Shown piece after piece: positions 6,563-63,994 of a DNA stretch of 64,000 nucleotides (positions are counted from its first letter, which is position 1; each line of letters begins with the position of its first letter). The DNA is from an uncultured Gammaproteobacteria bacterium (GTDB lineage Bacteria > Patescibacteriota > Patescibacteriia > Magasanikbacterales > UBA922): positions 7,307 through 71,306 of the forward strand of contig CAYQNA010000003.1 of the NCBI GenBank assembly GCA_964418775.1. The letters are read 5' to 3'. The notes beneath the pieces were generated by a model, which saw only the letters and a list, made by a program, of their open reading frames with translations, ran no database searches and was not told where the DNA came from. The position numbers and the translations under genes were made by a program.

Positions 6563-7822
6563 TTACCGCACAATACCAGCCATGACCAGTGGCAAATGCC
6601 ATGGTGCAGTAGCGCGGCCAGCCTGCTTGAACACTTTAGTCCCCTTTTGACCCGTTAAAGCCGCTGCACTATGGACAGTGTGCTTACCAAAACGCTTGGC
6701 TAGGGTATCTACAGCTTCATAAACTTGGCGTAATGCTGGTGCTGTAACCACAGACTCGAACAAATCACCCTGCACAGCATCTGCATCGCTTAATTCCGCC
6801 AACACAACTCCGGTAGCACGATAGGCCTGGCCAGACTTGTGCAAACGAGCAAACACTGGTTTGATCGCATTGATTACATCACGGTCAAACGCTGAAGGAC
6901 GCACGAGCTTAATTTCCATAGCCATAACATTAAAGGCCGTATTTTTGAGAAAAATTGAAACTCGAGCAGCGACCAGGTTATGCTGACGAGCTTTGGCACA
7001 AGCATTCTCAATGTTGCGCACGAGCTCAGCATACACGGCCTGACGATCAGTTCGACCAACTGTGAACGTATGCGTTTTGGAAATCGAAGCTACGGTTGTT
7101 TTTTCTTCAGAAATCACTGGGTATACGCTAACACCTTGCAATTCTTGCCAGATTTCCTGGTGCGGTTTGGAAAAATTGTCACGCACCGCGCCCAAGGATT
7201 GGCCAACAAAATCATACGCAGTAAAAATATTCATGCGACGCATATATTCAGCTGTGCTCGAACCAATCCCCCACACTTGGTCCACCAGAAAGTCGCGTAA
7301 ATACTCAGGCAAATCTTTGCAACTAATCGTTACTAAACCATTTGGTTTATTGCTACCCGAAGCTAACTTGGCCAAAACTTTTGTTGGCGCAAGACCAACC
7401 GACACAGTGATTCCGAGCTCGCGTTGGATTGTATTTTTAACTGTTTCCGCAATCTGTTTGTAGGTTAAACCTTCCACTTTATCTAAGCCGGTAATATCCA
7501 TGAAACCTTCGTCAATACTGTATTCCTCTACCTGGTCAGTAAAACGACGCATGATCGCAAACAAGCGACGTGAGAACAAGCTGTAGGCTTCATAATCGCC
7601 CTCGCACACAGCCAAATCTGGACATAACTGACGAGCTTGCGACACGAGCATGCAACGCTTGACCCCTTTGGCTTTAGCTTCATAACTAAGAGCAGTCACA
7701 ATGCCACGGTCACCGCCAACAACCACTGGACGTCCTTTTAAACTAGGGTGTAAAGCTTGCTCGCAGCTGGCAAAAAATGCGTCGGCATCAATGTGCACGA
7801 TCGCCTTAGGAAATAAATTCAT
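6563..7822 (-). CDS. dinB: DNA polymerase IV (Y-family, DinB)
   Basis: IVHIDADAFFASCEQ...GRPVVVGG...GLD motifs of Y-family polymerases; 20 bp downstream of lexA. Confidence 0.9.
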   Translation of the reverse strand: MNLFPKAIVHIDADAFFASCEQALHPSLKGRPVVVGGDRGIVTALSYEAKAKGVKRCMLVSQARQLCPDLAVCEGDYEAYSLFSRRLFAIMRRFTDQVEEYSIDEGFMDITGLDKVEGLTYKQIAETVKNTIQRELGITVSVGLAPTKVLAKLASGSNKPNGLVTISCKDLPEYLRDFLVDQVWGIGSSTAEYMRRMNIFTAYDFVGQSLGAVRDNFSKPHQEIWQELQGVSVYPVISEEKTTVASISKTHTFTVGRTDRQAVYAELVRNIENACAKARQHNLVAARVSIFLKNTAFNVMAMEIKLVRPSAFDRDVINAIKPVFARLHKSGQAYRATGVVLAELSDADAVQGDLFESVVTAPALRQVYEAVDTLAKRFGKHTVHSAAALTGQKGTKVFKQAGRATAPWHLPLVMAGIVR

Positions 7823-46127: not shown

Positions 46128-46134
46128 ATACGAG

Positions 46135-46550
46135 CTCGACGGGTCGGATTCGAACCGACGACCAATTGGTTACACGTTATCCTTGCTTTCGCAAAGCGTG
46201 GACTATATCTTCACCCACGTCATAATCTGGTCAAGCCAGAAACGTTAGGGTGCGAAGCGCTTCCCCCGATAAATCGAGGTACTCCCATATGGGATAGTCT
46301 CTGAACCTTCAATGCCGTCCAGACAGTCATAAAGACAAATCCTTCTCAGCAAAGCTTGGCTGCAGATTGCCATATCCCGAACAAGTCGGGCTTTAGGTTT
46401 CCTGATCCGGTTAACCGGATTTTTCCAAATAAATGGAAAACAGTTCACTTCGTTTTTCATCCGAGCATTACTGCCCGGAGCTGCTATTCAGCTCTCTCGC
46501 GAGAGGAGCCGTAGCTACAGCCAACTGCTCTACCACTGAGCTACCGTCGA
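46135..46550 (-). tRNA. tRNA gene (U1-A72, G73) interrupted in the anticodon loop by a group I intron; spliced anticodon loop CUGUUAA (Asn, GUU) favoured, CUUGUAA (Thr, UGU) not excluded
   Basis: Intact acceptor/D arm (TCGACGG TA GCTC AGTGGTA GAGC) and T arm/acceptor (GTCGG TTCGAAT CCGAC CCGTCGA G) separated by ~340 nt carrying group I core elements; coordinates +/-2. Confidence 0.7.
46173..46516 (-). ncRNA. Group I intron (approx. boundaries) within tRNA
   Basis: Conserved R element GGTTCAGAGACTA and S element AAGATATAGTCC (P7 pairing GACTA/TAGTC), Q-like AATCTGCAGCCAAG; candidate IGS GCAGCU pairing exon GGCUGU with U.G at splice site; ends in G. Confidence 0.65.
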
Positions 46551-46635
46551 ATGATTGGTTTAAAGAACTGGCAAAAGTATATCAAAATCTTAAGAGGGTG
46601 TCAAGCACGGCAAAAAGGCAGAATTTTCTCTTTAC

Positions 46636-47106
46636 TTAGCCTATTTTAATCAAAAAATCAGGAATGATTCCCAAGGCAATGTAACGCGCCTGTAATTCTG
46701 CTGGTAAATATTGGAAATCGCGAATTAAACCACGGCACAACAGACTGCCGCACTCACACGTCATTTCATTCGCATCATTGTACATGGTAGTGGAATAATC
46801 GTAAGTGATTTGTTCACCCGCACCAATGTCTTTGATAGCAATTAAATCCGCCAGCTCGCCCACCACGCGATACCCGGCATTTGGGTCGCACGAGTGATTG
46901 ACATAATCATCAACCTCACCCGACGAACCTAAAAATGTGCGCTCCCCGATTTGCAAACAATGCTCGTCCTCGTATGAGCCATCCTCAAAATCATCATAAT
47001 CCAAAATTGGCCCCTTGGCTTCGAGGATTTTCTCACCTTTGGCAAACGGCCTGGCCGCAAACACGCCCTGGCCATATTTGGTTTGTTTGGTGATAATATC
47101 GGGCAT
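46636..47106 (-). CDS. SET-domain protein (putative lysine methyltransferase)
   Basis: NHSCDPN, ITYDY and post-SET CECGSLLCRG motifs; start set at MPDIITK because track ORF (TTG 47175) would overlap tRNA-Gln. Confidence 0.65.
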   Translation of the reverse strand: MPDIITKQTKYGQGVFAARPFAKGEKILEAKGPILDYDDFEDGSYEDEHCLQIGERTFLGSSGEVDDYVNHSCDPNAGYRVVGELADLIAIKDIGAGEQITYDYSTTMYNDANEMTCECGSLLCRGLIRDFQYLPAELQARYIALGIIPDFLIKIG

Positions 47107-47129
47107 ATAAAAACAGAGGTTGTCCTCTG
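47104..47129. terminator. Terminator hairpin CAGAGG-TTGT-CCTCTG followed by U-run on minus strand
   Basis: Immediately downstream of tRNA-Gln. Confidence 0.45.
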
Positions 47130-47136
47130 CAAATAG

Positions 47137-47207
47137 TTCCGGGGCAAGGATTCGAACCTCGATACGCAGCTTCAAAGGCTGCTGTCCTACCTTTAGACGA
47201 CCCCGGA
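47137..47207 (-). tRNA. tRNA-Gln (anticodon UUG), U1-A72
   Basis: Cloverleaf: TCCGGGG/CCCCGGA acceptor, anticodon arm GCAGC-CTTTGAA-GCTGC, T loop TTCGAAT. Confidence 0.85.
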
Positions 47208-47218
47208 GTGTTCCCTAC

Positions 47219-48127
47219 CTAGACCTTGAGGTAGCGGCGCATGGCCAGGTAACTGGTGCCAACGGTCAAAATCACGACCGCACCCAGCTGCCAGGCAGCG
47301 AGCTCAATTATATGGGCCGACAGGTAATTTGTCAATATTCCCGAACGGTTGAAGACCGCGGTTAAATACGGCTCGGCATAGCGCAAAACCAGGCGTACGA
47401 GCCCATACGAGGCCACAAGCGCGATGAGTGAGAAAAAGACTGACTCGACCACATACGGCCCGCGCACATACCAATTGGTCGCGCCCACGAGCTTTTTGAT
47501 GCTGATTTCCACGCGCTGGGTGTAGATGGCCACGCGCACAGTGTTGAAAATAATGATAAATGAAATCAAGCCAAATAAAACCGTGAGACCAAACGTAAAG
47601 CGCTCGATTTGATTCGTGACTTGCTGGATTTTGCTAATCGCGGCCTGAGTATCGCCAAATGTTTTCGCATCAATGACCTTGTCATATTCGGGGAGCGACA
47701 ACGCACTCATGACTTTGTCATAATCTTGTGGCTCGCGCGTTTTGACAATAAGTGTGGCGCCCAGTGGATTTTCACCTAATTCTTCGAGCGAACTTAAGAT
47801 CGCGGGGTTGGCCTGGTACAATTCACGGAATTTTTCGAGTGTCTCGTCTTTATTCAAAAACGTGGTCTTGGTGACTTCGGGGAAGGCATCAACAAACGCA
47901 CGCACCTCGCTCACCTGCGTGTCGGTAGCAGTTGGTTTAAAATAAATACTCACGTCAATTTGCTGCTTCACAGCTGTGATTGCTTCGCCAGTCAGTACGC
48001 GCACAGCAATCATAGTGTTCACGGAGAGCAGGAGTAAAATCAAAATAAGCACAGTCATGAATGACAGGCTGAAATTTCGGAACATGTCTTGGAGCGCAAA
48101 TCGAACAATGCGGAAAAATGGCAACAT
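47219..48127 (-). CDS. ftsX: Cell division permease FtsX
   Basis: 4 TM, FtsX periplasmic domain, directly downstream of ftsE. Confidence 0.8.
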   Translation of the reverse strand: MLPFFRIVRFALQDMFRNFSLSFMTVLILILLLLSVNTMIAVRVLTGEAITAVKQQIDVSIYFKPTATDTQVSEVRAFVDAFPEVTKTTFLNKDETLEKFRELYQANPAILSSLEELGENPLGATLIVKTREPQDYDKVMSALSLPEYDKVIDAKTFGDTQAAISKIQQVTNQIERFTFGLTVLFGLISFIIIFNTVRVAIYTQRVEISIKKLVGATNWYVRGPYVVESVFFSLIALVASYGLVRLVLRYAEPYLTAVFNRSGILTNYLSAHIIELAAWQLGAVVILTVGTSYLAMRRYLKV

Positions 48128-50969: not shown

Positions 50970-51671
50970 CTACTTCCAGGCTGTGGCTGACGTAATCTTA
51001 ACCGGCAACAAGTCTTGCGAAGATATAAAGTAGAGTTCATTTGTATTAAATTGTCCTTTTTCACTAACAACAACTTTTGAGTCAACAATCTTTACAAATT
51101 TATTGCGCATAATGTCGTATTTTCCGCCAAGATACATGTGTTCCATTTTCTTGAACGCCCGCGTTGCTTTTTGTTCTGCCTCTTTAAGCGATTTAGCAAA
51201 CACAAGATATGCGCGACCCTCTTGCTGCTGAGTACCATAACTTTTCCCTTTTGTTTGATACACAAACAATCCGGTAACCAAATGCCAGTCCGACTCTCGT
51301 TTAGGTAATTTGGTAATTGTAATCTGTTTGCGTCCGCGTATTTTATCAATCTGCACAACACGAATTGCCGCGCGGCTGTTAATCAATCTGTGCAAGTTTG
51401 GACCAGTGATTACCGCTTTAAAGATATCTGGCTCACGATGGTTCTCATCACGCACGAACACATCCTCTAAAGCAAAATTGGCCATTGTTTTTTGCAACGA
51501 ATCTTTGAGAAACTTTTCGGTAAACTTTTTACGCTCCGGTACAGTCAAGGGCACCATTTTTTTAACCGATGGCCACTCTAAGAAAACTGTGACTTCAATT
51601 TTGGTACTTAAACTCTTTAAATCTTTTTCTTTTAGACCGTACAAATCTAACCCCCAGATTGGAATTTGCAT
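50970..51671 (-). CDS. Hypothetical protein, paralog B of tandem pair (unknown family)
   Basis: Aligns along full length with 51685-52383 product (IPIWGLDLYGLKEKDLK...KKMVPLTV.ERKKF...YLVFAKSLKEAEQKA). Confidence 0.4.
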   Translation of the reverse strand: MQIPIWGLDLYGLKEKDLKSLSTKIEVTVFLEWPSVKKMVPLTVPERKKFTEKFLKDSLQKTMANFALEDVFVRDENHREPDIFKAVITGPNLHRLINSRAAIRVVQIDKIRGRKQITITKLPKRESDWHLVTGLFVYQTKGKSYGTQQQEGRAYLVFAKSLKEAEQKATRAFKKMEHMYLGGKYDIMRNKFVKIVDSKVVVSEKGQFNTNELYFISSQDLLPVKITSATAWK

Positions 51672-51684
51672 ATAAAAAAGTAAT

Positions 51685-52383
51685 TTACAACCATGCATTT
51701 TGCGCCGTAATTTTACCCGGCTCGACGATACGGCTCAAAATTATGTTTGACTCTGACTTGTTAATTATTTCATTATCTGTACCTGCATAGCGAGATTCCA
51801 GAAATTCAACAAAGGTATGTTTGACTAATTGATACCTCTGATCAAAGTACACTTTTTCCATTTTTCGAACCGTCTTTTTGGCCCTACGTTCGGCCTCATT
51901 ATACGAATGCGCAAATACCAACAGGACTTTTTCCTGTCGCATATGTACCCCTTTATTTTTGCCCCTTACCCGCTCTTCAAAAAGAGCAATAAAATAAAAC
52001 CAGCTTGTTGGAAAAATTTGTTTGGTTTTAATTGGCTTCATTCCGATAATCCTCTGTACAGCCAATGATTCAACTCCAGTGGCTTGATTCAATATTTGAT
52101 ATAACGTCTGCCCCGAAACTACAATCGTAGCTTTTCTTAAATTAAGAGGCCAACCGTCCTCGCCGTGACGAGCTTCAACGAGCGGAAAGTTTGATACTAA
52201 CTTTTGATATAACGCATTGTAATATTTGTGCGCAAACTTTTTTCGCTCTAACACAGAAAGCGGAAGCATTTTTTTAAGCGGCGGCTCGGCAAACGTAACA
52301 AAAAGAGTAATTTTGTTATCAACATTCTTTAAATCTTTAACTGTAAGACCGTAAACATCCAAAAAGTAGATAGGAATTGACAT
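51685..52383 (-). CDS. Hypothetical protein, paralog A of tandem pair (unknown family)
   Basis: IPIYFLDVYGLTVKDLK...KKMLPLSVLERKKF...VLLVFAHSYNEAERRA; no recognisable catalytic motif. Confidence 0.4.
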   Translation of the reverse strand: MSIPIYFLDVYGLTVKDLKNVDNKITLFVTFAEPPLKKMLPLSVLERKKFAHKYYNALYQKLVSNFPLVEARHGEDGWPLNLRKATIVVSGQTLYQILNQATGVESLAVQRIIGMKPIKTKQIFPTSWFYFIALFEERVRGKNKGVHMRQEKVLLVFAHSYNEAERRAKKTVRKMEKVYFDQRYQLVKHTFVEFLESRYAGTDNEIINKSESNIILSRIVEPGKITAQNAWL

Positions 52384-53186: not shown

Positions 53187-53304
53187 CAATAAGCGAGCGA
53201 AATGCTGAGCTGGCTCAAGCATTTCCGAGCGTTTGGACGATGCACGAAGTGCAGCGGCAAACGGTCTAGGCCAAAATTATAATTGGAGAAGATGGTTTTG
53301 TCAA

Positions 53305-58927: not shown

Positions 58928-60031
58928 TCAAATCAGCGCCGTCATGTCCCCGTCGGTGATGGGGATGAGCTCATCGCCCGCGACCTCGCGGGTGGCGAGA
59001 CCAATGTCGATGAGGACCTCCCAGCTGCGCGTGCCCGCGAGCGTGGGCGGATACCTCTGTGACACATTGTCATGGTCCACGGGCGCCTCCTCCATGACGC
59101 CCATGACCGCGTCGGTATGCAGATGCAGGAAGAGCGAACGTGCAACACGGAACGGCGAACGTCCATCCGCCACTGCCCCGATCACGGAGTTCGCCGCTCG
59201 CTGCGTGCACGAGACCTCGTGGTACCCCGCGAGAAAGTACCCACCGGTCACGTACTCGAGTTGCTGTCCGACCTGCACCAGGAAGCACCCGGGCGGGATC
59301 GAGACCTCGAGCTTGGTGCCGTCCCGAAGCCAGATCACCAACCCCGGGAACGTCGAGCGGTCGTGCGCCGTCAGGAACCCGAAGTCGTTGTGGCAGGCGT
59401 TGATGACGTCGCCCACCTTCAACGTGCTCAGGTCAATGGCGTTGAGGGCCAGGATCGTTGCACCGTCGATGAGTCGATGCGTGAGCCGTCCCGCCTTGAG
59501 CCCGAGCCCCCGCTCCACCAGCATCGTGCAGGTGAGAGAGGTGTTGATGAGCACCTGAGCCTGCCGGTCCATGAGGGACGGCCACAGGTCGGTGAACACG
59601 GCCGGCACGACCTGTTCCTCGCGCTTGTTCAGCTTGGGGAACCGCGTCTTGGCCGGCTGCGTACCCGCGCGCCACATGAACCGCATCTTGGGATCCGCGA
59701 ATCCGGCGGGGCACACGGTCGGGTAGTTCTCAGGGTTGAGCGTCCGGAGGAACTCCGCGCACTCGACCGCCTTCTCGACGCCCGGGGGCGTCAGTCCGAC
59801 CTGGTACCCGAGCTCCTCACGCACATCTGACGCCAGGAGCTCCCACGGCTGCGCGAAGTACTGCTGAGCCATGGTCCGGACCTGCACGTCCTCGCCAGAC
59901 GTGAGAACGCGCGGATCCCGCACGATGACCGCACCGAACCGGTGCAGGGCATCGACGAGCGTGCGCGCCGTGTCTAGGTCATCCTCACCCGCCAACGTGC
60001 TGGTGAGGTCGATGATGGGAAGATCCTTCAT
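58928..60031 (-). CDS. 2OG-Fe(II) oxygenase family protein (isopenicillin N synthase-like); GC-rich (~63%) outlier
   Basis: N-terminal DIOX_N-like LPIIDLTS...FGAVIVRDPRV, H-x-D (CHNDFG) iron-binding motif; GAGGTG SD before MKDLPI start; many overlapping GC-artefact ORFs. Confidence 0.65.
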   Translation of the reverse strand: MKDLPIIDLTSTLAGEDDLDTARTLVDALHRFGAVIVRDPRVLTSGEDVQVRTMAQQYFAQPWELLASDVREELGYQVGLTPPGVEKAVECAEFLRTLNPENYPTVCPAGFADPKMRFMWRAGTQPAKTRFPKLNKREEQVVPAVFTDLWPSLMDRQAQVLINTSLTCTMLVERGLGLKAGRLTHRLIDGATILALNAIDLSTLKVGDVINACHNDFGFLTAHDRSTFPGLVIWLRDGTKLEVSIPPGCFLVQVGQQLEYVTGGYFLAGYHEVSCTQRAANSVIGAVADGRSPFRVARSLFLHLHTDAVMGVMEEAPVDHDNVSQRYPPTLAGTRSWEVLIDIGLATREVAGDELIPITDGDMTALI

Positions 60032-60110
60032 TGTCACCTCTTGCGCTTGAGACCACTGCGGTCTGGCTTTTAAATACCATAAACAAGCCAAAAACGCAAC
60101 TAAAAAAATT

Positions 60111-60148
60111 TGAAAACAAAAAATCCCCCACCACATGGGCGAGGGATT
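60111..60148. terminator. Terminator AATCCC-N16-GGGATT + U-run on minus strand downstream of rpsI
   Basis: Seen in sequence. Confidence 0.5.
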
Positions 60149-60169
60149 CTTGATTTTGAAAATTGCGGA

Positions 60170-60580
60170 TTAACGCTTTCTCCACTGGTGACCACGGCGA
60201 GCTTTGCGCTTACCTGGCTTCTTACGTTCCTTGGCACGAGCGTCGCGTGTCAAGTAACCTTCGGCGCGGAGCACTGGGCGGAGGTCTTCGTTCCACTTGG
60301 TCAAAGCGCGAGCAATACCATGGCGAGCAGCCACAGCCTGGGCGTGAACGCCACCACCGCTAACTTTGATACTAATGTCGAGCTGACCTTCGCGGCCGGC
60401 GAGCTTAAGTGGAGCAACCACTTTTTCGCGCCAGAGTGCGACTGGGAAGTACGCTTCGAGCGTCTTGCCGTTTACTGTAATTGTACCATTACCTGGGGCC
60501 ATTTGAACGCGGGCAGCCGCGGTTTTGCGGCGACCAACAGCGCGTTCTGCGCCACCAGTTGTTTTTGCTTTAGTAGCCAT
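60170..60580 (-). CDS. rpsI: 30S ribosomal protein S9
   Basis: S9 signature GGG..QA.A..HGIARAL, basic C-terminus. Confidence 0.9.
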   Translation of the reverse strand: MATKAKTTGGAERAVGRRKTAAARVQMAPGNGTITVNGKTLEAYFPVALWREKVVAPLKLAGREGQLDISIKVSGGGVHAQAVAARHGIARALTKWNEDLRPVLRAEGYLTRDARAKERKKPGKRKARRGHQWRKR

Positions 60581-60591
60581 AAATATTCAGA

Positions 60592-60957
60592 TTAGGCTTC
60601 GATAGTCAAGCGGTTCATAAGGTCACTGCGACGGCGGTTTTTTGGCAACATGCCATTAACAGCGTGACGCATAACCTCGGCTGGACTCTGCTTGAAGACT
60701 TTGGCCATGGCCACGGTTTTCAAACCACCAGGATGCATGGTGTGGTGTTTAAAATCTTTCTGGGCTAATTTTTTACCCGTAAAGATTACCTTGCCAGCGT
60801 TTTTTACAACCACTGACACGTTTGGGTCAAGGTGAGGCACCATGCCTGGCTTATCCTTGCCCATGAGTGCCATGGCGATCTGAGTTGACACACGACCTAC
60901 GGCCTGACCAGCCGCGTCGATTTCCACAGTGCGTGGAGCGGGATTAGTTAATGCCAT
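60592..60957 (-). CDS. rplM: 50S ribosomal protein L13
   Basis: IDAAGQAVGRVSTQIA...GK motif; start at MALTNP (track ORF extends upstream). Confidence 0.9.
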   Translation of the reverse strand: MALTNPAPRTVEIDAAGQAVGRVSTQIAMALMGKDKPGMVPHLDPNVSVVVKNAGKVIFTGKKLAQKDFKHHTMHPGGLKTVAMAKVFKQSPAEVMRHAVNGMLPKNRRRSDLMNRLTIEA

Positions 60958-61312: not shown

Positions 61313-61325
61313 AACAGGTCAAAAC

Positions 61326-62033
61326 TTACGCCTCTTTAGAGGTTTCAGACGCTTCAAGAATAATACTGAAGTGGTTCATCAGGATCTTAGTCGTTTCACG
61401 CACTGCTTCGCGAGGCATGATCGTACCATTGGTTTCAATGGTGAGCGTCAATTTTTCGTAGTCAGTAATATCGCCAACGCGGGTGTTTTCCACATCGTAG
61501 CCAACATCCTTAACCGGGGAGTAGAAGGAGTCTACGAGCATGGTGCCCAAGTCGAGATTCTTACTGTTCTTTTCCGCAGCTGGGATATAGCCCAAGCCGC
61601 GACCTACGATAACTTCCATGGAGAAAGTTTTCTTCGCGTCAGTAACAGTTGCCAAAACGGCGTCCTGATTAATAATTTCCACATCAGCGTTCTTTTCAAA
61701 ATCAGCCGCAGTGACTGGGCCAAGACCCTTTTTAGTCAATGTCAGCTTTACTGGCGCGTCGCTGTGGGACACAACGGCCAACTGCTTCAAGTTCAACAAA
61801 ATATCAATGACATCTTCCTGCACACCGTCAATGCCAGCAAATTCATGCTGCACACCCTCGATCTTCACAGCTTCAACCGCTGCGCCTGGGATGGAGGACA
61901 AGAGCACGCGGCGGAGCGCATTGCCCAAAGTTGTACCATAGCCCTGGTGACATGGAGTCACTACCAACTTACCAACCAATGGATTTTCAGTTGTCTGAAA
62001 CTCGATCGTGGACGGAATGAGAATGTGTTCCAT
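61326..62033 (-). CDS. rpoA: DNA-directed RNA polymerase alpha subunit, N-terminal domain only (no alpha-CTD)
   Basis: Alpha NTD motifs (GYGTTLGNALRRVLLSSIPG, EVIVGRGLGY); ends ~235 aa at ...TKILMNHFSIILEAS with stop 14 nt before rplQ. Confidence 0.85.
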   Translation of the reverse strand: MEHILIPSTIEFQTTENPLVGKLVVTPCHQGYGTTLGNALRRVLLSSIPGAAVEAVKIEGVQHEFAGIDGVQEDVIDILLNLKQLAVVSHSDAPVKLTLTKKGLGPVTAADFEKNADVEIINQDAVLATVTDAKKTFSMEVIVGRGLGYIPAAEKNSKNLDLGTMLVDSFYSPVKDVGYDVENTRVGDITDYEKLTLTIETNGTIMPREAVRETTKILMNHFSIILEASETSKEA

Positions 62034-62034
62034 A

Positions 62035-62658
62035 TTAGCGGGTAGAGAAATACTCAATAATAAGGGTAACGTCAAAAAGTTTCTCAAAGTCGTCCTTCTG
62101 TGGTTCACTCAAAACTTTACCAGACAGGGCGGCAGAATCATTGGACACCCATGATGGAAGGGTGGCTTTTTCTAATTTCTCGGACATGCCTTCGAACAAC
62201 TTGCTCTTGGCCTTGGTTGGCTTAACGGTTACGACATCGCCCGGCTTAACCAAGTGCGAAGCCACGTCGAGTTTCTTGCCATTCAAGAAGAACATGCCGT
62301 GAGTCACCATTTGGCGAGCTTGGGCGCGAGTAAGAGCAAAACCCATACGGTACACCACGTTGTCGAGACGCATTTCGAGGGCCTGTTGCAAGTGAACACC
62401 AGAGTCACCCTTTACGCGAGTGGCTTCGTCAACATAGCGACGGAGCTGGCGTTCGCGGATACCATAAATATACTTGGCTTTTTGTTTTTCCAAAAGTTGC
62501 TTACCAAAACTCGATGGTGCCTTAACACGCTTGCCAGGACCATGGACGCCAGGCTGCTGATTCAAACGGCGGGCAACCTTGGCTGGATTACTCTTGAGGC
62601 CAAGATTAACGCCAAAGCGGCGGGCGATTTTATTACGTGGACCAGTAAATCTTCCCAT
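62035..62658 (-). CDS. rpsD: 30S ribosomal protein S4
   Basis: MGRFTGPRNKIARRFG, S4 domain. Confidence 0.9.
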   Translation of the reverse strand: MGRFTGPRNKIARRFGVNLGLKSNPAKVARRLNQQPGVHGPGKRVKAPSSFGKQLLEKQKAKYIYGIRERQLRRYVDEATRVKGDSGVHLQQALEMRLDNVVYRMGFALTRAQARQMVTHGMFFLNGKKLDVASHLVKPGDVVTVKPTKAKSKLFEGMSEKLEKATLPSWVSNDSAALSGKVLSEPQKDDFEKLFDVTLIIEYFSTR

Positions 62659-62681: not shown

Positions 62682-63071
62682 TTAGACGCGACGGCGCTTT
62701 GGTGGACGGCAGCCATTGTGTGGCATTGGGGTCATATCTTTTACCCCGAGCACCTGCACACCATTGGTGTTAAAAGCGCGGATAGCGGCTTCGCGACCAC
62801 CACCAATACCCTTAACAAACACAGTTACTTCTTTGAGGCCTGCGTCTTTGATAGACTCCAGCACCTTCTTGACCACCATACCAGCAGCGTATGGAGTGGC
62901 CTTTTTGGCGCCTTTAAAACCAGCGCCACCAGCACTTGCCCAACCCATTACATCACCGTTCTGGTCAGTCAACGTCACAATTGTGTTATTGAAAGTAGCC
63001 TGAACATAGGCGCGTCCATGAGCAACAAGTTTAAGGACTTTCTTCTTTTTTACAACTTTCTTTTCAGCCAT
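62682..63071 (-). CDS. rpsK: 30S ribosomal protein S11
   Basis: Typical S11 sequence (FNNTIVTLTD..GDV..WASAG). Confidence 0.9.
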   Translation of the reverse strand: MAEKKVVKKKKVLKLVAHGRAYVQATFNNTIVTLTDQNGDVMGWASAGGAGFKGAKKATPYAAGMVVKKVLESIKDAGLKEVTVFVKGIGGGREAAIRAFNTNGVQVLGVKDMTPMPHNGCRPPKRRRV

Positions 63072-63091: not shown

Positions 63092-63478
63092 CTAGGTCTT
63101 CTGAGCCGCTGGCTTCTTGCCACTGGCTGCCAAGTTACGCTTGTTACCGCGTACGGTACGAGAATTTGTTTTGGTACGCTGGCCACGAACTGGCAAATGA
63201 CGCATGTGACGGACACCACGGTAAGCCTTGATATCCTTGAGGCGCTTAATGTTGGCCTGCACTTGGCGACGGAGGTCACCCTCGGTGGTGTGTTGCTTTT
63301 CAACAATTGTGCGGACCATGTCCTGCTCGTCCTGAGTCAACTCGCTCACACGCTTGGTCAACGGGAGTTTAGCTGCAGCTACGATTTTAGCAGCAGTGGT
63401 TGGACCAATCCCGTAAATATACTCGAGCGCAATTACGAGACGCTTCTCCTTTGGAATAGTTACACCGGCAATACGCAT
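63092..63478 (-). CDS. rpsM: 30S ribosomal protein S13
   Basis: MRIAGVTIP..YIYGIG. Confidence 0.9.
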   Translation of the reverse strand: MRIAGVTIPKEKRLVIALEYIYGIGPTTAAKIVAAAKLPLTKRVSELTQDEQDMVRTIVEKQHTTEGDLRRQVQANIKRLKDIKAYRGVRHMRHLPVRGQRTKTNSRTVRGNKRNLAASGKKPAAQKT

Positions 63479-63489
63479 ACTGAATAATA

Positions 63490-63627
63490 TTAAGCGGCTT
63501 TAATGCGCTGTTTAGTACCCTGACGCTGTTTGTGGCGTGGAGTTTCGCAGATAATGTGAACTACCTGGCGACGACGCACCACTTTGCACTTATTGCAACG
63601 AGGTTTAACTGAGGCTGTCACTTTCAT
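63490..63627 (-). CDS. rpmJ: 50S ribosomal protein L36 (45 aa, below ORF-track cutoff)
   Basis: Translates to [37 protein letters not shown]...; C-x2-C...C...H zinc ribbon. Confidence 0.8.
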
Positions 63628-63778: not shown

Positions 63779-63994
63779 TTAGAAACGGTAGGTCACGCGA
63801 CCTTTGGTCAAGTCGTAGGGCGAAAGCTCTACTTTGACCTCATCCCCAATACTCAAACGAATATTGTGGACGCGCATTTTCCCTGATAAGTGGGCAATGA
63901 CCACTAGCTCATTTTCCAAAATTACCCTAAATTTTGCTCCGGGTAGAACCTCATCGATTTTACCACGGACCTCCAAAACGCTGTCTTTAGGCAT
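63779..63994 (-). CDS. infA: Translation initiation factor IF-1
   Basis: S1-like OB fold sequence typical of IF-1. Confidence 0.9.

Follow-up and report, generated by a model that had tools for sequence, protein, structure and literature searches.

The C-terminal domain (CTD, PF03118) of the α subunit of bacterial RNA polymerase (RNAP) binds UP elements, region 4 of the sigma factor and transcriptional activators. It is the basis for the stimulation of rRNA and tRNA promoters by UP elements as well as for most class I activation and is usually regarded as universal in bacteria; an evolutionary study from 2025 calls it ubiquitous in all Bacteria (PMC12531629). An α subunit that is truncated for the CTD still assembles and basal transcription is kept, while transcription that depends on UP elements or class I activators is lost (summarised in PMC8321222). 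Bacillus subtilis cells with a CTD-less α continue to grow, but double in 1.9 h as compared to 1.0 h, and genes for ribosome synthesis and for secondary carbon sources are down-regulated (PMC4495994).

Naturally CTD-less α subunits have been described in Hodgkinia, Tremblaya and Euglena plastids (PMC8321222, 2021), and a single sentence in the same paper states that Parcubacteria lack the α-CTD. The study cited for this claim (Nelson & Stegen 2015, PMC4508563) lists rpoA merely as a core gene, and CTD loss in Parcubacteria is not mentioned in the text or supplements examined. The organism analysed here, represented by a DNA stretch of 64 kb (the window), belongs to the Patescibacteria (CPR) and is Magasanikbacteria-like. 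Magasanikbacteria are placed inside the Parcubacteria group in the NCBI taxonomy, and the sentence in PMC8321222 therefore covers this organism. Full-text literature searches retrieved no paper on the phylogenetic extent of the loss, on basic or AT-hook tails of α, or on the consequences for promoters. The bare fact of CTD loss in Parcubacteria has thus already been stated, and the RpoA encoded in the window is a well-documented case of a scarcely described kind.

The rpoA gene of the window is located on the minus strand at 61326..62033, starts with ATG at 62033, ends with TAA at 61328-61326 and encodes a protein of 235 amino acids (MEHILIPS...SETSKEA). A longer reading of 260 residues from a GTG at 62108 was rejected, as it overlaps rpsD and the homologues all start with MEHILLPS. 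A Pfam scan detects PF01000 at residues 56-172 (E 3e-29) and PF01193 at residues 27-222 (E 2e-24), while PF03118 is absent from the protein even at E<=1. The NCBIfam rpoA equivalog models used for comparison are 298-344 positions long, and the match is confined to their first ~230 positions (1-232 in a model with 320 positions, 2-216 in one with 298). With 260.6 bits, the protein scores above the cut-off of TIGR02027 (227.8 bits); it stays below that of NF003519 (272.3 versus 277) and likewise below those of the other PRK05182 sub-models, because the CTD part of these models is unmatched.

Structural comparisons lead to the same boundary. Alignments with α subunits in the PDB span only residues ~20-235 of the latter, with residues 19-225 of the window protein corresponding to residues 22-231 of E. 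coli α, and the identity to solved N-terminal domains (NTDs) is 42-46%; the chain in PDB 1BDF likewise consists of 235 residues. In an AlphaFold2 model that was computed with 25 relatives as input (mean pLDDT 90.5), the last predicted helix comprises residues 207-230 and is followed by five residues and the TAA stop codon. Foldseek matches this model to the α NTDs of solved RNAP structures with TM-scores of 0.87-0.91 over 221-233 alignment columns. The combined Pfam, NCBIfam, PDB, AlphaFold2 and Foldseek results therefore define the window RpoA as a complete α NTD and no more. The original prediction, that the reading frame ends about 235 residues after its start and at the end of the NTD, is borne out by the Pfam, NCBIfam and PDB alignments, and the alignment to reference proteins that it proposed matched only the NTD part of α. 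It is thereby confirmed that rpoA in the window genuinely encodes an α subunit with the assembly domain alone.

The gene occupies its usual position in the α operon, between rpsD and rplQ. The minus-strand gene order is infA (63779..63994), a 45-aa ORF (63490..63627) that is probably rpmJ as judged from its position and sequence, rpsM (63092..63478), rpsK (62682..63071), rpsD for S4 (62035..62658), rpoA, rplQ for ribosomal protein L17 (60962..61312), rplM (60592..60957) and rpsI (60170..60580). The Pfam labels of infA, rpsM and rpsK derive from the identical gene order on a second contig, L081, and rplM and rpsI from gene calls on the same contig that were mapped onto the window. The stop codon of rpsD lies 1 nt ahead of the rpoA ATG, a gap that suggests translational coupling of the two genes. 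A terminator scan identified a strong terminator-like hairpin with a 14-bp stem at 60151..60119, which is probably the end of the operon.

Directly past this terminator, a 402-aa ORF (58928..60136, minus strand; 367 aa as called on L081) is found in a block with 58.6% G+C, compared to about 46% in the window. It shows a weak match to 2OG-Fe(II) oxygenases (E 3e-4) and may have been acquired horizontally. Elsewhere on the same strand, the window encodes two adjacent paralogous ORFs at 50970..51698 and 51685..52383 (242 and 232 aa), which match DUF4288 weakly and below the Pfam cut-off.

On the downstream side of rpoA, the spacer between its stop codon and the ATG of rplQ (61313..61325) comprises 13 nt, and the rplQ product is complete (PF01196 1-97/97, E 3e-32). 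The earlier statement that rplQ starts 14 nt further on agrees with this arrangement, in which the ATG begins at the 14th nucleotide, and so does the statement that there is no room for an α-CTD: the 13-nt spacer offers no coding space for one. An assembly error, a frameshift or a gene-calling artefact that cuts a normal rpoA of ~315 aa was considered as a rival explanation for the short α, since such truncations do arise in metagenome assemblies, and several CTD-negative proteins among 150 more distant representatives have tails resembling frameshifts or chimeras (e.g., P0174, P0195 and P0234). In the window, however, a frameshift or readthrough into a CTD was rejected, since only 13 nt separate the stop codon from a complete rplQ, and a CTD is encoded in none of the frames, downstream of rpoA or elsewhere. 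The identical 235-aa protein is encoded on L081, an independently assembled Logan contig (run SRR12487046), with unchanged neighbours and again a 13-nt spacer. All 120 nearest relatives, as well as nine related loci among those listed, share this architecture. An artefact is thus effectively excluded, and we assign it only a negligible residual probability; the test for a frameshift or assembly error came out in favour of a CTD-less state that is conserved in the lineage.

The relatives were analysed at two levels of divergence. The best 120 matches among 5.8 billion proteins share 64-99% identity with the window protein, are 230-289 aa long, originate from many separate assemblies and all carry only PF01000 and PF01193; where sources are named, they are Candidatus Magasanikbacteria, Parcubacteria or Patescibacteria group bacterium. 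The comparison of rpoA length across the lineage that had been suggested thus gave a short α without PF03118 throughout these best 120 relatives. A local profile built from 80 CTDs matched none of the 120, as opposed to 80 of 150 more distant representatives (the best 150 of clusters at 50% identity), and its calls agreed with a Pfam spot-check in seven of seven proteins (two with and five without a CTD). Among the GTDB species genomes, nine of the loci listed (L001-L008 and L074) contain a CTD-less rpoA with rplQ 2-26 nt past the stop codon; their titles include one Veblenbacteria, one Parcubacteria and two Patescibacteria group genomes. Another 71 loci listed keep a normal CTD, including Saccharibacteria, Andersenbacteria and one Patescibacteria-group genome. 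This survey comprises at least 16 loci that are titled as Patescibacteria lineages or contain a CTD-less rpoA, and it represents a sample of the distribution and not a census.

These data indicate that the loss covers part of the Patescibacteria, namely Magasanikbacteria, Veblenbacteria and some Parcubacteria, and that it is evidently typical of the branch of the window organism and not of the whole Patescibacteria radiation. In a neighbour-joining tree of the NTDs, the window protein falls within a clade whose members all lack the CTD; a further large cluster is CTD-less too. The deep branches of this tree are long and poorly resolved, and a number of independent losses is therefore not claimed. 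An archaeal-like or ancestral CTD-less state was considered and ruled out by the presence of the CTD in Saccharibacteria, Andersenbacteria and other Patescibacteria. These CTD-bearing relatives therefore identify the CTD-less state as a secondary loss.

Some of the retrieved sequences deserve mention in their own right. Three of the CTD-less loci (L001, L003 and L007; CAZKQL010000049.1, CAZQRI010000022.1 and CAZIVC010000007.1) belong to MAGs that are titled 'uncultured Gammaproteobacteria bacterium'. Their rpoA genes are of the CTD-less Patescibacteria type, with products that are 49-75% identical to the window protein, and the Gammaproteobacteria labels are probably wrong. Two other proteins contain two divergent α NTDs in tandem, P0123 (526 aa) in the order NTD-NTD-CTD and P0132 (664 aa) in the order NTD-CTD-NTD-CTD, and could be covalently fused α dimers. 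The internal duplication in P0121 (569 aa) is exact and probably arose during assembly.

A CTD that is missing from α could be supplied in trans from outside the window, either by a separate (HhH)2 protein, by a fusion to another RNAP-associated protein or by a second, full-length rpoA. Free-standing PF03118 proteins do exist elsewhere. One is the 84-aa protein P0320, encoded at 7001..7255 of locus L084 (also present on L085 and L086) in a prophage of an unrelated bacterium, and a similar protein of 96 aa (P0326) is annotated in Bacillus paramycoides. Two non-identical α subunits are known in Francisella (PMC3294249), and the sequence examined for the window organism amounts to 64 kb of its genome.

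Within these 64 kb, a search of all six frames with the CTDs of E. coli and B. subtilis as queries found no α-CTD (best E 2.6), nor did the same search with the profile of 80 CTDs (best E 2). The nine CTD-less loci listed are likewise devoid of CTD matches anywhere in the locus, i.e., within ~6 kb on each side of rpoA as far as the contigs permit. The separate CTD gene that would overturn the original prediction is consequently absent from all of the sequence covered by these searches. A profile of Patescibacteria CTDs retrieved 47 short proteins with no Magasanikbacteria among those with legible source names, which is a weak negative result, as most of the 47 are nameless and some names are incomplete; both top hits inspected are contig-end fragments of an ordinary rpoA just upstream of rplQ, and a further hit is the prophage protein P0320. 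An untethered CTD also has no known means of docking on RNAP. Finally, relatives carry other appendages at the position of the CTD, such as Lys-rich tips and possibly a SAP-like repeat, and replacement or loss is therefore favoured over a split gene. A CTD provided in trans is accordingly considered very unlikely, and loss of the domain remains the preferred reading. The α-CTD is essential for viability in E. coli, and for this reason the window organism may possess a compensating feature.

The prophage encoding P0320 contains integrase, YopX, HNH and Lar-like genes and adjoins rimP-nusA-infB. P0320 may serve as a phage decoy for partners of the α-CTD.

In many CTD-less relatives, the alignments and tail statistics reveal an appendage at the CTD position that is variable and disordered; it consists of an acidic spacer and a Lys-rich tip, e.g., ...EEKKPKKAKKSKKEE. 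Tails of at least 15 aa are present in 72 of the best 120 relatives, and 40 of these 72 contain at least five Lys or Arg residues within the last 15 positions. Short low-complexity tails are also found on 28 distant CTD-less representatives, with a basic tip in 22 of them. Four representatives have AT-hook-like ends, which read KRGRPKK in P0133, P0138 and P0187 and KRGRKKK in P0259, and rpoA of the Veblenbacteria locus L006 ends with KRGRPKK as well. Where a tail reaches 25 aa or more, the spacer carries a mean net charge of -4.4, compared to +2.1 for the tip. AT-hooks and, at UP elements, the α-CTD have the minor groove of A+T-rich DNA as their common binding site. This shared mode of binding makes it an attractive hypothesis that the tips are minimal substitutes for the CTD, and the Lys-rich or AT-hook-like tips on α of these relatives may provide a weak and non-specific contact to upstream DNA.

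The near relative P0125 (332 aa) of the Magasanikbacteria-type α subunits differs from this pattern. Its residues ~225-332 form an acidic linker followed by two repeats of ~35 aa that replace the CTD and show a weak SAP/Ish1/Rho_N-like similarity (E 8e-5, below the Pfam cut-off). The source of P0125 is a single contig of 2.9 kb.

If upstream DNA were contacted through such non-homologous modules, UP-like stimulation by A+T-rich sequences could persist without an α-CTD, via the Lys-rich or AT-hook tip on α in the relatives and via some other basic tail in the window organism, e.g., on sigma or on a nucleoid protein. The frequency of basic tips in close and distant relatives, the AT-hook-like ends and the alternation of a negative spacer and a positive tip are in line with this possibility. 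Conversely, the window RpoA has no tail, and 39 of the 120 closest relatives resemble it in having at most 12 residues past the NTD. Tail length and sequence also differ widely, with some tails being acidic throughout, which implies that at least some members of the clade can dispense with them. The strong promoters of the window, described below, furthermore lack an A+T-rich upstream region. Persistence of UP-like stimulation through a non-homologous module is hence regarded as unlikely. A substitution of the CTD by basic tails is possible in the relatives, but inapplicable to the tail-less RpoA of the window; in the window organism and in its closest relatives, the tail has apparently disappeared too.

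The promoters predicted in the window are compatible with transcription from core elements. Promoter-like sites are twice as frequent in the window as in shuffled sequences (49 versus 23.8). Perfect 12/12 matches to TTGACA-17-TATAAT are predicted on the minus strand at 53304..53276 and at 47335..47307, located 90-100 nt upstream of tRNA-Thr(CGU) and tRNA-Gln(UUG), respectively, and 11/12 matches precede tRNA-Gly and an intron-containing tRNA. At about -59..-38, the promoters that precede tRNA-Thr, tRNA-Gln and tRNA-Gly contain 36-45% A+T. Over the seven best predicted sites of the sigma-70 type, a number with low statistical power, no A+T enrichment was observed at this position (mean 0.52 versus 0.53 for the window). 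The strong predicted promoters, a small sample of seven sites, fit a model in which transcription relies on consensus core elements and UP elements play no role.

Several features in the vicinity of these tRNA genes were recorded in addition. The promoter of tRNA-Gln(UUG) sits within the 3' end of the ftsX coding region. A group I intron of ~350 nt (Rfam RF00028, 54.5 bits; core 46180..46456) interrupts the anticodon loop of a tRNA gene at ~46134..46550 (minus strand). This tRNA gene was missed by ARAGORN. When spliced in silico according to the group I rule, by which the 5' exon ends with U and the intron with G, it folds as tRNA-Thr(UGU) or tRNA-Asn(GUU). The predicted 11/12 promoter just upstream of this gene (46604..46576) contains a TG extension. 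A small SET-domain protein is encoded at 46636..47175 (minus strand; PF00856, E 4e-15). Such domains are characteristic of lysine methyltransferases, and a gene of this type is unusual in a bacterium with a reduced genome. The listed TTG start of this gene overlaps tRNA-Gln, and the true start is therefore probably located further downstream.

On the basis of these observations, we consider it highly likely that the window contains a genuine, lineage-typical rpoA, in which the CTD and its linker have been lost and the assembly function has been kept, with a loss of UP-element and activator contacts and a reliance on core promoters. In the corresponding mechanism, the 235-aa α would dimerise and nucleate the assembly of α2-β-β′, in line with its intact fold and the conserved LGNALRRVLLSS motif; the genes for its putative partners, rpoB and rpoC, lie outside the window. 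Contacts of an α-CTD with UP-element DNA, sigma region 4 or class I/II activators would not be formed. The strength of a promoter would then be set by the -35 and -10 core elements recognised by sigma, and regulation would take place via repression or via contacts with sigma, β or β′. As none of the 120 closest relatives contains a CTD, UP elements and class I activation probably play no part in transcription in this lineage. The original prediction had gone further in stating a necessary departure from model bacteria in promoter architecture and in the use of activators; this is plausible, in that it follows from established α-CTD biology and fits the few strong promoters of the window.

A broader scenario extends this reading to the clade. 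A large branch of the Patescibacteria may have dropped the α-CTD together with the UP and class I layer of regulation, and in many members the acidic spacer with its Lys-rich or AT-hook tip would act as a minor-groove-binding substitute. The window organism would represent the end point of this process, with no upstream contact by α and with near-consensus core promoters. We put this scenario forward tentatively, as a possibility that is somewhat doubtful at present.

A CTD-less environmental lineage constitutes a natural experiment in a minimal bacterial transcription apparatus. The absence of the CTD limits the regulators that CPR bacteria can use, and it is relevant for promoter prediction, for expression engineering and for the reconstitution of RNAP from these organisms. 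The basic or AT-hook tips that recur in relatives suggest the testable hypothesis that a DNA-binding domain was convergently replaced by a short disordered motif.

In comparison to canonical RpoA (TIGR02027/PRK05182; 329 aa in E. coli and 314 aa in B. subtilis), the window protein has the same two-domain NTD, retains the LGNALRRVLLSS motif and shares the operon position rpsM-rpsK-rpsD-rpoA-rplQ, but it lacks the linker of ~13 aa and the (HhH)2 CTD of ~80 aa. Its end nearly coincides with that of the classical α(1-235) assembly fragment of E. coli, and essentially the same end point is found in the RpoA-del construct of B. subtilis. These truncations are laboratory constructs with fitness defects, whereas the truncation in the window is natural and conserved. 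The archaeal Rpo3 (subunit D) and the eukaryotic Rpb3 are homologous assembly platforms that are likewise devoid of an α-CTD-like domain. The sequence affinity of the window RpoA is nevertheless clearly bacterial, and models of archaeal subunit D give low scores (30 bits versus 153 for NF001988 and 23.8 versus 194 for NF011548).

The closest parallels are the α subunits of Hodgkinia, Tremblaya and Euglena plastids, in which the NTD has also been kept and the CTD lost in a genome-reduced lineage; for the Patescibacteria considered here, a genome size of roughly 1 Mb is estimated from contigs of relatives, which measure up to 873 kb. As in these known cases, the CTD-less state is lineage-wide, being present in all of the best 120 relatives and in the nine loci listed. 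In contrast to the insect endosymbionts and plastids, however, the lineage of the window organism belongs to a large and diverse environmental radiation, and many of its members carry a new appendage, the acidic spacer with its basic tip.
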